This document shows positions 47,623 to 59,125 of a stretch of 64,000 bases of DNA, in pieces. Under the pieces are notes generated by a model, which saw only the letters and a program-made list of their open reading frames with translations, searched no databases and was not told the DNA's origin. The position numbers were made by a program, and so were the translations under genes. The DNA comes from an uncultured delta proteobacterium (lineage in GTDB: Bacteria; Desulfobacterota; Binatia; UBA9968): positions 224,001-288,000 of the forward strand of contig CAVSHR010000006.1 of NCBI GenBank assembly GCA_963727625.1, written 5' to 3'. Position 1 is the stretch's first letter. Each line of letters opens with the position of its first letter.

Positions 47623-53298
<5,676 letters not shown>

Positions 53299-53703: not shown

Positions 53704-54126
53704 CTATGGAAAGTTTTTTTGCTGCGGCTGCTTGGGAAACTTCGGCAAATCCGGGTTCATATGATCCCAGGGCTGGGCGCTGGAGGTGAAAAAATCCATT
53801 GTTGGTTTGAAGCGGCTCGGATCGTCGAGGCTTCCCGCGGTGATCAAGATGAACTGCGGGAAACCGGAGGTCTTGCCGAAGACTCTGCCGCCGCAATTCG
53901 GACAGAATCCACGACTGAAGGTATTACCGCTGTCGGCGCGGCTCTCGTAGTATTGAACCTCGCCGGTAATCTTTACCGAACCCACCGGCACGGCGAATGC
54001 CGGCACGTAAGCGCCGCCGGTTGCTTTCTGACAATCTCGGCAGTGGCAATTGCCGCTGAACAACGGCTCCGAGGCGCATTCGTAGCGCAGCGCGCCGCAC
54101 TGGCAACCGCCGGTAAGAGTGCTCAT
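53704..54126 (-). CDS. GFA / CENP-V family protein
   Basis: GGCQCGALRY, CHCRDCQK, FCPNCG. Confidence 0.9.
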   Translation of the reverse strand: MSTLTGGCQCGALRYECASEPLFSGNCHCRDCQKATGGAYVPAFAVPVGSVKITGEVQYYESRADSGNTFSRGFCPNCGGRVFGKTSGFPQFILITAGSLDDPSRFKPTMDFFTSSAQPWDHMNPDLPKFPKQPQQKNFP

Positions 54127-54467
54127 ATTTTCCTCCCCATAGATTGTGCTGAGGTTTGGCAACCGATCGCCTTTATCGCCCAGACGCGCAGTCGATCGCG
54201 GTCTTCGATGATGTCGACCGGGACTTGATAATAGCTTCTGAGCGTTTGCTTGGCGTTGGGCCGAAACGGTTTCATCTTGCGCCTGCGATACTCGCCGACG
54301 CTCGCATCATCGATCTTGAAATACAGCCGGCCTTTATGAAGGATAGCGAAAAACGTTTCTTCCCGGTACAGACCGAAGCCACCGAACATACGCCGCGCCT
54401 CGACACCCTCCAACTCCTGCAGCTGGTCGAGCACAAAATCCTTAAACGACTCATCCTTCTTATTCAT
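54123..54467 (-). CDS. TfoX N-terminal domain protein
   Basis: RRMFGGFGLY, LYFK, SYYQVPVDIIED. Confidence 0.85.
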   Translation of the reverse strand: MNKKDESFKDFVLDQLQELEGVEARRMFGGFGLYREETFFAILHKGRLYFKIDDASVGEYRRRKMKPFRPNAKQTLRSYYQVPVDIIEDRDRLRVWAIKAIGCQTSAQSMGRKI

Positions 54468-56874: not shown

Positions 56875-57303
56875 TCAACGCAGAACCATTTTTTTGTGCG
56901 CAATGCCCGCTTCGTCGAAAACCGCGCCGACGGAGCGAAAGCCCATGGATTCATAAAAGCCGATCACCGGGACTTGAGCATGGAGATAAATTTTTCTGGC
57001 GCCGAGTTTCTTAGCCGTCGTAATTGAGCGTTTGAGCAATCTCGTCCCGACGCCTTTGCGCCGATAAGTTTTTAGCACGGCCATGCGTCCGATCTTGGCG
57101 CTGCCGCGGCGCAGGACGATCCGCGCAGTGCCCACTGCCCGACCCGCGGTGATCGCCAAAAAATGAATCGCGCTTGCGTCGTCGCCATCGAGCTCGATCT
57201 CGGCGGGCACATGCTGCTCGCGCACGAACACGCGTATGCGTATGGCAAAGGCTTTTTTCAAATGTTGTGAAGAGGAAACTCGCCTGATTTGTACTGCCGC
57301 CAA
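56875..57303 (-). CDS. GNAT acetyltransferase (ElaA/YjcF-like)
   Basis: IRIRVFVREQ, KIGRMAV, RRKGVG, LHAQ, FDEAGIAH. Confidence 0.88.
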   Translation of the reverse strand: MAAVQIRRVSSSQHLKKAFAIRIRVFVREQHVPAEIELDGDDASAIHFLAITAGRAVGTARIVLRRGSAKIGRMAVLKTYRRKGVGTRLLKRSITTAKKLGARKIYLHAQVPVIGFYESMGFRSVGAVFDEAGIAHKKMVLR

Positions 57304-57357
57304 ATTCGTAGGGTCCTTGCCGATTGCCTGGTGATGAACTTGGATTTATCGTGGCGC

Positions 57358-58128
57358 CTATTCCCACAGTCCTTCGGGCAACGGCAGGCCTGCGAGATCG
57401 TCGGCGCTTAGCCGGCCGGCCGGTTCGATGCCGAAGCGTTCGAGCACGGCGATCAGTTGGCGCGTATGCTGCGCCGAGTGCCAGGTCGAGCGCTCGAAGA
57501 GCTGGTGCAACGGCGGCGCGCCGTAAAATGTCTTGACCTTTTGCCGGCAGGATTTGTCGTTGAGCCGGTCCCACCAGGTTTCGACTCGCGCGATCGTTTC
57601 TTCGCCATAAGCGGCGATCTCCGCGCCGGTCAAGCAGGTCCCGTCCTCAGGCGGAATGTTGGCGTTGTTGACTCGATACTCAACCTCGTCGATGGCGGTT
57701 TGGAGAAACGCTTCGGCGATTCGAAAAATATGGTGGCTCATGAGCCGGATCGAACGGTCGCGATTATCGATCACCCGCTCCACTAGCCGTTCATCGGGTA
57801 TCTGCCGGATATAACGTCGCGCAGCGCGTAAGACCTCCACCCATTTCGTTAAAATAATTTCCGGCGGCAGGGGCGTCTGCCCCGTCCCTTGCACGCCGAC
57901 GAACTCGGCAACATCTTCGAGATTCTGGCAAAAGACATACTGCCCGTCTCGCGCCAGCACCGGTACGGTGCGCACCCCAAGCTTGTGAAGTTGCTCTTGC
58001 CCGGCGGGATCGTTTAATACGTCGACGGCGCTGAATTCAATGCCTTTCCTCGAAAGAAACTCTTTCGTTCTAAGGCAACTGCTTCAGCCCGGCTGCGTGT
58101 ACAGAACGAGCGGCTCGGCGTTCTCCAT
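57358..58128 (-). CDS. Glutaredoxin(NrdH-like)-DinB fusion, probable selenoprotein (UxxC; TGA 58084-58086)
   Basis: MENAEPLVLYTQPG-TGA-SSCLRTKEFLSRKGIEFSAVDV...GVRTVPV continues in frame into the listed 205-aa ORF with DinB-type His motifs (MSHH, WHSAQH). Confidence 0.87.
58041..58077 (-). promoter_or_regulatory. Candidate bacterial SECIS element
   Basis: After UGA: lower stem TGCCTT/AAGGCA, upper stem CGAAAGA/TCTTTCG, apical loop GTT. Confidence 0.7.
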
Positions 58129-58228
58129 AATTTTTACAATCCGTGGACCGCGTTCTTGTCCGACACCTATCAACGACTCAAAAAGGTTTCAAGCGAGATC
58201 AACAACCCGACCTCATGGCTAAATTCAC

Positions 58229-59125
58229 CTAACTCAAAGACCGGGTCGCGTCGTCAAACAGCTCATCGACCTCTAACTTGCGCGGAATAAGCCGCTGCTG
58301 CACGGAGTAGTGAATGATCAGCTCCAGGCTGCGCCGTATATTCTCTACGCCGAACTGGATCGGGTCGAGCACTTTTTCCGCGGCCGGTGCGGCTTGTTTG
58401 CTCGCGCGCAACAACTGAAAAATTTCCTTAACGGCCGCGGGATTCGACTTTGTCAGCGATTCCTTGACGACCAGCATGTGGTTGATGGGCCGCACGCCGT
58501 AGCGGCGGCACCATGAGCGCGCCGCGTCGTCGGGATTCGCAATCACCGAGCGCAGCCGGGGGTCTTTAAGATCGCCGCCGCCGACCAGCCCGGCATCGAT
58601 CTCGCCATCGAAAAGCATCTGCACGAGCTGTTTGCCGTCGGGCGCGCGCTCCGCCGTCGGCGGATCTCGATACTCGGCGACATGCGGCTCTTCAAAGGTC
58701 ACCCACTTGATCGTGTCGAGGTCGACGCTGTGATCGTTCTGGAGAATGCCGCGCATCCACGCCGCGGTGGTCACCGAATAGGCGCGGATGCCGACGCGCT
58801 TGCCGCCAAGGTCGGACGGAGCCAGCCGGCCGCGCTCGGCGTTATAAGCGAGAAACGGATGCGGCAACGTGCCGACCACTACGGCAGGCAACAAGACTAA
58901 CGGCTTGCCATACGCTTTGGCCTGCAGGTAGGTCACGATGGCCAGCTCGGCAACGTCGTACTTCAGATGGCGCACGACTTCTTTAAAAGCCGTGTTCGGC
59001 ACTTTCACGTCGGCGAAGTCGAGTATGATGTTCGGCGCCCGCACTTCGCCGTTCTTTAATGCCAAGGTGTTGGGATAATCGCCCAGCAGCGTTCGCAGTG
59101 TGAGAGGCTCTGAAGCGTCGCTCAT
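58229..59125 (-). CDS. 4,5-dihydroxyphthalate decarboxylase-like protein (SBP fold)
   Basis: GDYPNTLALKNG, DVAELAIVTY, YSVTTAAWMRGIL, PINHMLV. Confidence 0.7.
   Translation of the reverse strand: MSDASEPLTLRTLLGDYPNTLALKNGEVRAPNIILDFADVKVPNTAFKEVVRHLKYDVAELAIVTYLQAKAYGKPLVLLPAVVVGTLPHPFLAYNAERGRLAPSDLGGKRVGIRAYSVTTAAWMRGILQNDHSVDLDTIKWVTFEEPHVAEYRDPPTAERAPDGKQLVQMLFDGEIDAGLVGGGDLKDPRLRSVIANPDDAARSWCRRYGVRPINHMLVVKESLTKSNPAAVKEIFQLLRASKQAAPAAEKVLDPIQFGVENIRRSLELIIHYSVQQRLIPRKLEVDELFDDATRSLS

Follow-up and report, generated by a model that had tools for sequence, protein, structure and literature searches.

In a stretch of 64,000 nucleotides (nt) from the genome of an uncultured delta proteobacterium of the Binatia (UBA9968; GenBank assembly GCA_963727625.1, contig CAVSHR010000006.1, positions 224,001 to 288,000), called here the window, the minus strand from 58128 to 57358 very probably holds a single mis-annotated gene, the product of which would be a two-domain protein of 256 residues with an in-frame UGA decoded as selenocysteine (Sec). 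From sequence comparisons, a glutaredoxin-like domain with the active site U-S-S-C would be followed by a DinB-superfamily-like domain with a conserved histidine triad. The explanation as a whole, i.e. the Sec-decoded gene, its two-domain product and the function proposed below, is regarded as likely.

Conservation of the in-frame UGA

The full coding sequence (CDS; 57358..58128, minus strand) is made of an ATG (58126-58128), 13 further codons, a TGA (58084..58086), 241 codons and a TAG stop (57358-57360). With the TGA translated as U, it gives 256 residues with a single U at residue 15, in the first position of the active site, the resolving Cys18 being encoded by a TGC (58075..58077) in a column that is invariant in the 46 sequences of the family alignment. 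An earlier analysis of the window made from its letters, referred to hereafter as the sequence-only reading, had proposed to extend a shorter open reading frame (ORF) upstream through one TGA to the ATG at 58128, and the translation bears this out. The shorter form, a 205-amino-acid (aa) ORF with a GTG start at 57975 (57358..57975, minus strand), is the truncated version reported by gene callers, the sole one in the program-made ORF list and the only one by which the gene is represented in the protein collection (P0002).

The codon at the U column was read by tblastn-anchored extraction in 80 homologous loci from public contigs, with one genome per species, and turned out to be TGA in 57, TGC in 13 and TGT in 7. 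The 3 others were unreadable, as L060 is truncated by the end of the locus, L105 has a disrupted frame upstream and L120, Cys by eye, escaped the motif pattern. In loci from relatives, TGA is found at this column in 20 out of 20, a tally including L025 (genome G005), which is also a row in the codon-entropy test and in the tree described below. Genome G035 enters only the counts of genome matches and of selA, and none of the conclusions rests on G005 or G035. Among 61 related genomes, a full-length match with exactly one TGA is present in 19, the window's own genome included, and these homologues align over residues 1-256. In addition, a second subfamily only 27-31% identical to the window protein carries TGA at the same column within the motif U-F-T-C (L149-L152, from four genomes, namely G045:C205, G036:C89, G034:C101 and G032:C20, belonging to the same family and order but to other genera); the four fetched loci read RPG-U-F-T-C-SSTKEFLS and keep the His pattern further down (CYHIL ... 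HTAHHLRQ). The sequence-only reading had named a lone nonsense mutation, with TGC or TGT in all close homologues, as fatal to its proposal, and the column holds TGC or TGT in only 20 of the 80 loci.

Regarding protein databases, a word-indexed search gave 4019 related proteins in total and, among the matches listed (120 of 4019), the close homologues (70-100% identical) are all 202-238 aa long and none reaches the U column, those of 238 aa starting at residue 19, i.e. one residue past the UxxC motif, which is the signature of gene callers halting at a conserved TGA. In NCBI, the Sec forms are fragments without names, and the forms with cysteine (Cys) at the U column are called "glutaredoxin domain-containing protein", "NrdH-redoxin" or "DinB family protein, partial".

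One copy departs from this pattern, as the locus of genome G017 (G017:C35:13444-14199; L041/L077) has two in-frame TGA and its reading leaves the family frame soon past the active site; decay of this copy or a fault in the assembly is the probable cause. This copy and the 205-aa gene calls are what would favour the TGA being a nonsense mutation or a true stop, with the ORF from GTG 57975, or nothing at all, as the functional product. Such a reading is extremely improbable considering that the TGA is kept in two phyla and in two subfamilies sharing about 30% identity, in the 57 of 80 and 20 of 20 loci given above, that the 14 codons upstream of it are open and homologous, with the ATG at a conserved distance, and that the 205-aa form would be devoid of the first strand and of the active site of the glutaredoxin fold, as placed by alignment with the structure 7c10.

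A SECIS-type hairpin with a fixed core

Behind the UGA, the strong hairpin noticed in the sequence-only reading is confirmed by folding, since the 76 nt around and after the codon fold at -29.5 kcal/mol against a mean of -19.1 (standard deviation 3.15) for shuffled sequences (z -3.29), and 1 of 200 shuffles is as stable. In this genome, folding of the window sequence gives an extended stem-loop (58026..58091, minus strand) with a lower stem that includes the UGA itself; this lower stem is lineage-specific and not conserved across the family. The predicted core of the selenocysteine insertion sequence (SECIS) lies at 58051..58067 on the minus strand, +20 to +36 from the U of the UGA, and consists of a 7-bp stem (CGAAAGA/UCUUUCG) with the apical loop GUU. 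At these positions, the Sec forms carry the 17-mer CGAAAGAGUUUCUUUCG. Among 62 unique Sec sequences, 61 have it without any change, and the one that deviates has an A>G change by which a G-U pair is preserved. The core is present in none of 20 Cys sequences, though the same K-E-F-L is encoded there.

A codon-wise test over 59 unique Sec genes and 94 amino-acid-conserved columns, from which CDS shorter than 240 codons (L041 and L077) were left out, as they were from the tree, found zero synonymous entropy only at the TGA and at codons 23-26 (GAG TTT CTT TCG), with an entropy of 0.12 at K22 and of at least 0.43 at all remaining columns. The same codons 23-26 vary in 20 Cys forms and their fixation in the Sec forms therefore points to selection acting on the RNA, not on the protein. 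Besides, the identical 17-nt core stands at the same distance from the TGA in all four loci of the U-F-T-C subfamily, and this sharing between proteins about 30% identical is the strongest single result for Sec decoding.

The published model of the bacterial SECIS (bSECIS) allows 3-9 nt in the loop and 4-16 bp in the upper stem, and requires a G in the first two loop positions, a distance of 16-37 nt from UGA to loop and a minimum free energy (MFE) of -7.5 kcal/mol or lower (PMC13188914). The window hairpin falls within all these bounds, with a 3-nt loop GUU, a 7-bp upper stem, a spacing of 23 nt between UGA and loop, and an MFE of -18.1 kcal/mol over 57 nt. An Rfam scan of window positions 57300-58300 returned nothing meaningful, and a scan for promoters and terminators brought nothing informative.

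Selenocysteine machinery and genetic code

The lack of Sec machinery had been set out in the sequence-only reading as another way for the proposal to fail, and the machinery is there in the window's genome (G000, 98.45% complete). The genes selA (607.5 bits), selB (397.5 bits) and selD (377 bits), all above their cut-offs, lie head to tail on contig C5 outside the window (G000:C5:715112-719466), selD having an in-frame TGA of its own, and a tRNA-Sec with anticodon TCA (76.7 bits) is encoded about 50 kb away (G000:C5:768830-768920). Among the relatives, selA is found in 56 of 61; in the 19 other genomes with a full-length match, the search for selA gave no hit in two, G009 (93% complete) and G030 (88% complete). 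As for genomes with Cys forms, selA was found in three out of five searched and not found in the two others.

As for any conserved in-frame TGA, it is formally conceivable that the UGA would be read as another amino acid (Trp, Cys or Gly), through near-cognate decoding or under an altered code, and nothing specific speaks for it. TGA is the stop of 2 of 13 ORFs checked in the window (those of the GNAT and TfoX types) and also terminates many homologues at the conserved C-terminus, which excludes an altered genetic code. With a complete Sec system in the genome, a SECIS-type hairpin under nucleotide-level selection just after the codon, and Cys, the standard counterpart of Sec, as the homologous residue, the chance of such a readthrough appears vanishingly small.

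A glutaredoxin-like domain followed by a DinB-like domain

The Sec-decoded product would start with a thioredoxin-fold domain of the glutaredoxin/NrdH type (residues 8-65; 57934..58107, minus strand), matched by Pfam PF00462 at E 1.1e-14 with 54.8 bits against a gathering cut-off of 22.9. All 46 members of the family alignment (28 Sec and 18 Cys) match this model. The best match in a profile search of the PDB is the glutaredoxin 7c10 (E 1.1e-14), with PGCssC aligned over NTCPHC and VPV over VPV, and the strings LYTQPGUSSC, TKEFL and RTVPV by which the sequence-only reading had recognised a complete glutaredoxin/NrdH domain are all present. The invariant N-terminal columns of the alignment are P13, G14, U/C15, C18, K22, E23, L25, G51 and P56, the latter in the cis-Pro loop; others are spread further along the protein, namely F76, L87, W185, W186, G203, L248, P249 and P251. 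Among NCBIfam models, none reaches its cut-off with the window protein, the nearest being glutaredoxin-like models of the YruB, UXX-star and NrdH types.

The second domain (residues 98-225; 57454..57837, minus strand) is matched by Pfam DinB_2 (PF12867) at E 1.8e-4 over profile positions 4-128 of 128. In the family, 37 of 46 members match DinB_2 at E<=0.01, the best at 5.6e-7, and scanning the C-terminal part alone gives, at E<=0.1, DinB_2 for 39 of the 46 members, DinB for 5 and DUF1572 for 4. In the DinB/STL superfamily, which comprises the bacillithiol and mycothiol S-transferases, a four-helix bundle holds a metal through three conserved His, according to PMC10950700. The His residues considered DinB-like in the sequence-only reading, within SHH and HSAQH, correspond to His133 (57730..57732, minus strand), a first candidate metal ligand, and to His217-Ser-Ala-Gln-His221 (57466..57480, minus strand), an HxxxH motif contributing the other candidate ligands. 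These three His (H133, H217 and H221) stand in every one of the 46 aligned homologues, and the U-F-T-C subfamily keeps them as CYHIL ... HTAHH. Around them, an invariant block comprises R213, W216-H217-S218-A219-Q220-H221, R223 and Q224. Based on the family-wide profile matches and the His triad, the C-terminal domain is classed as DinB-superfamily-like, its membership by profile being borderline for the window protein. The fusion of a UxxC redoxin to a DinB-type domain, as first suggested from the window alone, runs through the whole family.

Distribution of the Sec and Cys forms

The Sec forms come from Candidatus Binatia-type and Burkholderiales-type metagenome-assembled genomes (MAGs). The Cys forms are at most 48% identical to the window protein and are hosted by Cupriavidus, Caballeronia, Burkholderia, Pseudomonas lini, Mesorhizobium, Bosea, Rhodospirillaceae and others. 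An all-against-all profile search at E<=1e-30 retained 250 representatives of 50%-identity clusters; among the best 150 of these 250, Cys stands at the U column in 62 by pattern match and at least 26 look like N-terminally truncated calls. Altogether, the family appears to be widespread in bacteria and unlisted by current selenoprotein catalogues.

In a quick maximum-likelihood tree (IQ-TREE), 58 of the 59 Sec rows fall on one side of a branch, the remaining one, the long-branch L103, being placed among the Cys forms without branch support. The Sec/Cys label would require a minimum of two changes on this tree, of which well-supported branches force only one; from these sequences, one switch and two switches cannot be told apart. 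L103 and L106 (JACMMK010000256.1 and JACMMK010000356.1) are two divergent Sec-form copies from one Burkholderiales MAG (ES-bin-91). They share 42-46% identity with the window protein and each carries the SECIS core; the start of selA is overlapped by one of the two.

Gene neighbourhoods

The surroundings of the gene were compared over 3-kb flanks in 74 loci (54 Sec and 20 Cys), L060, L069, L094, L105, L118 and L120 being left out. In the window, a 298-aa ORF lies directly upstream (58229-59125, minus strand), and a GNAT gene, a gene of the PEP-mutase family, MOSC and EamA are found downstream. The 298-aa ORF has no Pfam or NCBIfam match; an ORF of equal length stands upstream in L043. Among the annotated neighbours of the family, no ribonucleotide reductase gene was found.

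Some Cys forms have a redox neighbour. In L096, L098, L104 and L109, the gene is followed on its own strand, at a distance of 76-158 nt, by a thioredoxin-disulfide reductase gene; in L096, L104 and L109 its product scores 369-385 bits against the TIGR01292 equivalog cut-off of 343.45, and that of L098 was placed by its blastp cluster. This neighbour keeps the CATC redox motif and, with 2-3 thioredoxin reductase genes in each of these four genomes, represents an additional copy. As NrdH-type redoxins are reduced by thioredoxin reductase, such a gene beside four Cys forms fits an NrdH-type route of reduction. In the Sec-form locus L070, a glutathione-reductase-like ORF with a score under the cut-off follows 4 nt downstream.

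In Burkholderiales-type genomes, the Sec forms stand close to genes of selenium and sulfur metabolism. In 20 of 54 Sec-form loci, all 20 of them Burkholderiales-type as judged from record titles and tree position, mnmA (encoding the tRNA 2-thiouridine synthase) is directly upstream on the same strand; selA occurs downstream within the 3-kb flank in 13 of the 54, and selB then follows in 5. In five such genomes that were searched, a Sec-type selD was present in all five and a Sec formate dehydrogenase above cut-off in two only. These associations could suggest a factor for selenium handling, rather than a thiol transferase or reductase of general use. It would act by reducing selenite or selenodiglutathione, or else by handing selenide on to SelD or the 2-selenouridine pathway; which donor provides SelD with selenium in vivo is described as unresolved in a 2026 review (PMC13188914). 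Nonetheless, Cys forms reside in genomes where selA was not found (two of five searched), the gene lies in the window's lineage on another contig than the sel genes, and a selenoprotein gene and sel genes may adjoin merely through co-travel, so that dedicated selenium handling is deemed unlikely.

Another association concerns genes of the MmgE/PrpD family, which adjoin the gene at 9 of the 74 loci (8 Sec and 1 Cys), always on its downstream side and, with one exception, on its strand. Moreover, a metagenomic representative of 721 aa (P0176) is a natural MmgE/PrpD-glutaredoxin-DinB fusion in Cys form. Together with a weak profile match to an E. coli Grx2-type protein, in which a glutaredoxin is joined to a helical domain (3ir4, E 0.0037), this could indicate that the C-terminal domain is a non-catalytic helical module for sensing or docking, by which an ordinary disulfide reductase would be brought to a partner such as an MmgE/PrpD-family enzyme. 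However, the best-conserved block (R213, W216-H221, R223 and Q224, with H133) has the pattern of an active site rather than that of a docking surface, and only part of the Binatia-type clade shows the PrpD link; a docking role of this kind is thus considered highly unlikely.

Proposed mechanism and its appraisal

In the preferred explanation, the ribosome would decode UGA codon 15 as Sec under the direction of the SECIS hairpin inside the CDS, with SelA, SelB, SelD and tRNA-Sec of the same genome supplying Sec insertion. The product would associate the U15-S-S-C18 redoxin domain with the DinB-superfamily-like domain, where His133 and His217-x3-His221 would hold a divalent metal as in DinB/YfiT-type S-transferases. 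This His3 site may bind or activate a thiol, or an electrophilic or oxidised substrate, which Sec15 would attack or reduce; Cys18 would then resolve the adduct into a selenenylsulfide, and the latter could be re-reduced by a flavoprotein of the thioredoxin-reductase type or by glutathione. Both gshB and trxB are present in the window's genome.

Several observations weigh against the explanation taken as a whole. With 22.4 bits, the DinB_2 score of the window protein is under the gathering cut-off of 24.8. A profile search of the PDB with the C-terminal domain retrieved designed helical repeats and chance matches, and no true relative; alignment by hhalign with 11 DinB_2 domains from related genomes is weak, at best 21% probability and E 0.001, though this same match puts the HxxxH of the window protein opposite the HxxxH of true DinB_2 domains. 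In the SECIS stem, RNAalifold detects no covariation because the stem never varies, and the support there comes from synonymous-site constraint only. A search for RNA sequencing runs covering the stretch listed none. Finally, the neighbourhood in the window says little on function, neighbourhoods differ between lineages, and the thioredoxin reductase neighbour is seen in only 4 of 20 Cys-form loci.

On balance, the catalytic scheme as written, from the His3-metal site to the attack by Sec and Cys and the re-reduction, is offered tentatively, as a possibility with somewhat less than an even chance, and a metal-dependent thiol-transferase activity stays conjectural. More doubtful is the larger proposition of a tethered Sec redoxin working directly on a His3-metal DinB site, which would constitute a new enzyme class and the founding member of an unannotated selenoprotein family, with a possible role in selenium or sulfur trafficking in Burkholderiales.

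Other observations in the window

Apart from this gene, an 1891-aa ORF (47623-53298, plus strand) contains two UvrA domain sets, with UvrA_inter twice, UvrA_DNA-bind twice and ABC_tran, and is about twice as long as a usual UvrA. An ORF of the glutathione-dependent formaldehyde-activating enzyme (GFA) family lies at 53704-54162 (minus strand). Taken with the gshB present in another part of the genome, it suggests glutathione use by the organism.

Significance and comparison with known systems

To a selenoprotein specialist, thioredoxin-fold chemistry with a UxxC motif will not come as a surprise, and the value of the family lies rather in selenoproteome annotation and in DinB enzymology. As the family is missing from catalogues and from NCBIfam, in spite of unusually clear evidence for Sec decoding, and as its gene calls are truncated, selenoproteins are being undercounted in Binatia and Burkholderiales from soil and freshwater. 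The DinB superfamily is large and mostly uncharacterised, for which a redoxin fusion provides a testable handle on function, and the adjoining thioredoxin reductase in culturable strains of Cupriavidus, Caballeronia, Pseudomonas and Mesorhizobium is a further lead in that direction. Kept across about 70% protein divergence, the 17-nt core is compact and easy to search for as a signature, and would suit studies of recognition by SelB. Were the redoxin to act on a His3-metal DinB site, the protein would bring together the thioredoxin-fold and DinB-bundle solutions to S-transfer, both already known. In Burkholderiales, it would be a selenoprotein genetically tied to selA-selB and mnmA, which may help to keep the Sec trait where formate dehydrogenase is absent.

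As regards novelty, the sequence-only reading did not recognise the architecture as characterised, and the resources consulted concur. A catalogue of 119 families, Table 1 of a 2026 review, lists only a generic "Glutaredoxin PF00462 UxxC" and no glutaredoxin-DinB family (PMC13188914), and the word DinB is absent from the accessible text of the prokaryotic selenoprotein reviews of 2022 and 2026 (PMC9312934; PMC13188914). NCBIfam has no model for a glutaredoxin-DinB family. A full-text literature search returned nothing on a glutaredoxin-DinB selenoprotein architecture, supplementary tables lying outside its coverage and surveys possibly counting such genes under "Grx".

The closest known system is the Sec glutaredoxin (Grx, PF00462, UxxC), which is experimentally verified, with reference to the Grx of Clostridium oremlandii, UxxC thioredoxin-fold selenoproteins being the commonest kind (PMC13188914, Table 1). 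The window protein resembles it as a thioredoxin-fold redoxin with Sec first in a UxxC motif, Cys homologues and a SECIS shortly past the UGA. It differs in that known Sec glutaredoxins are small and single-domain, whereas an extension of about 170 residues, mostly DinB-like, is present here at the C-terminus, and in that the family motif is U-S-S-C or U-F-T-C, not of the CPYC or CPHC type, and comes with its own invariant SECIS core.

The NrdH and YruB redoxins (TIGR02194 and TIGR02196) give the best NCBIfam matches to the N-terminal domain, with 44.8 and 39.7 bits, the latter being the score for NrdH (TIGR02194), but the cut-offs of 88.55 and 85.75 bits, the second again that of NrdH, are far above these values, and the window protein has two domains. 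The UXX-star selenoproteins (NF041212, NF041211 and NF041114) are glutaredoxin-like too. The score against NF041212 is 41.3 bits for a cut-off of 66. As their family name tells, UXX-star proteins carry Sec three residues from the C-terminus; in the window protein, by contrast, Sec sits in the N-terminal active site with some 240 residues following. Members of that kind seem to occur as short TGA-containing matches in the window's genome and its relatives. One such match, short, glutaredoxin-like and interrupted by two in-frame TGA, lies beyond the window at G000:C5:185638-185871 (minus strand), and nearly all of 60 relatives gave similar ones, about 80 aa long and containing one TGA or two; these are probably small selenoproteins of the UXX-star type.

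On the DinB side, BstA/YfiT and the mycothiol S-transferases (MST) of the STL superfamily are comparable through the DinB_2 matches across the window family and through the H...HxxxH triad, which is like the three-His site of the superfamily. At the equivalog level, only 2 of 46 members are matched by the YfiT model (NF009807; best E 0.0084) and only 1 of 46 by the MST model (NF047843; E 0.079), all of them weakly. Binatia and Proteobacteria use glutathione and are not known to use bacillithiol or mycothiol, and the window family differs from these enzymes in being hosted by such bacteria, with gshB in the window's own genome, and in having the redoxin fused in cis.

The order of domains, a thioredoxin fold then an all-helical domain, is also that of E. 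coli glutaredoxin 2 (GrxB) and of canonical glutathione S-transferases (GSTs), to which weak profile matches were obtained (3ir4 as above, 4kx4 and 1g7o). The 3ir4 match is nevertheless limited to residues 7-123 and strongest over the redoxin, and the helical domain of the window protein matches DinB_2, not GST_C. Taken together, the Sec glutaredoxin is the part already known, and what the sequences present as new would be the DinB-type fusion, the family-specific invariant SECIS core, and the breadth of a family that goes unnamed in current resources.

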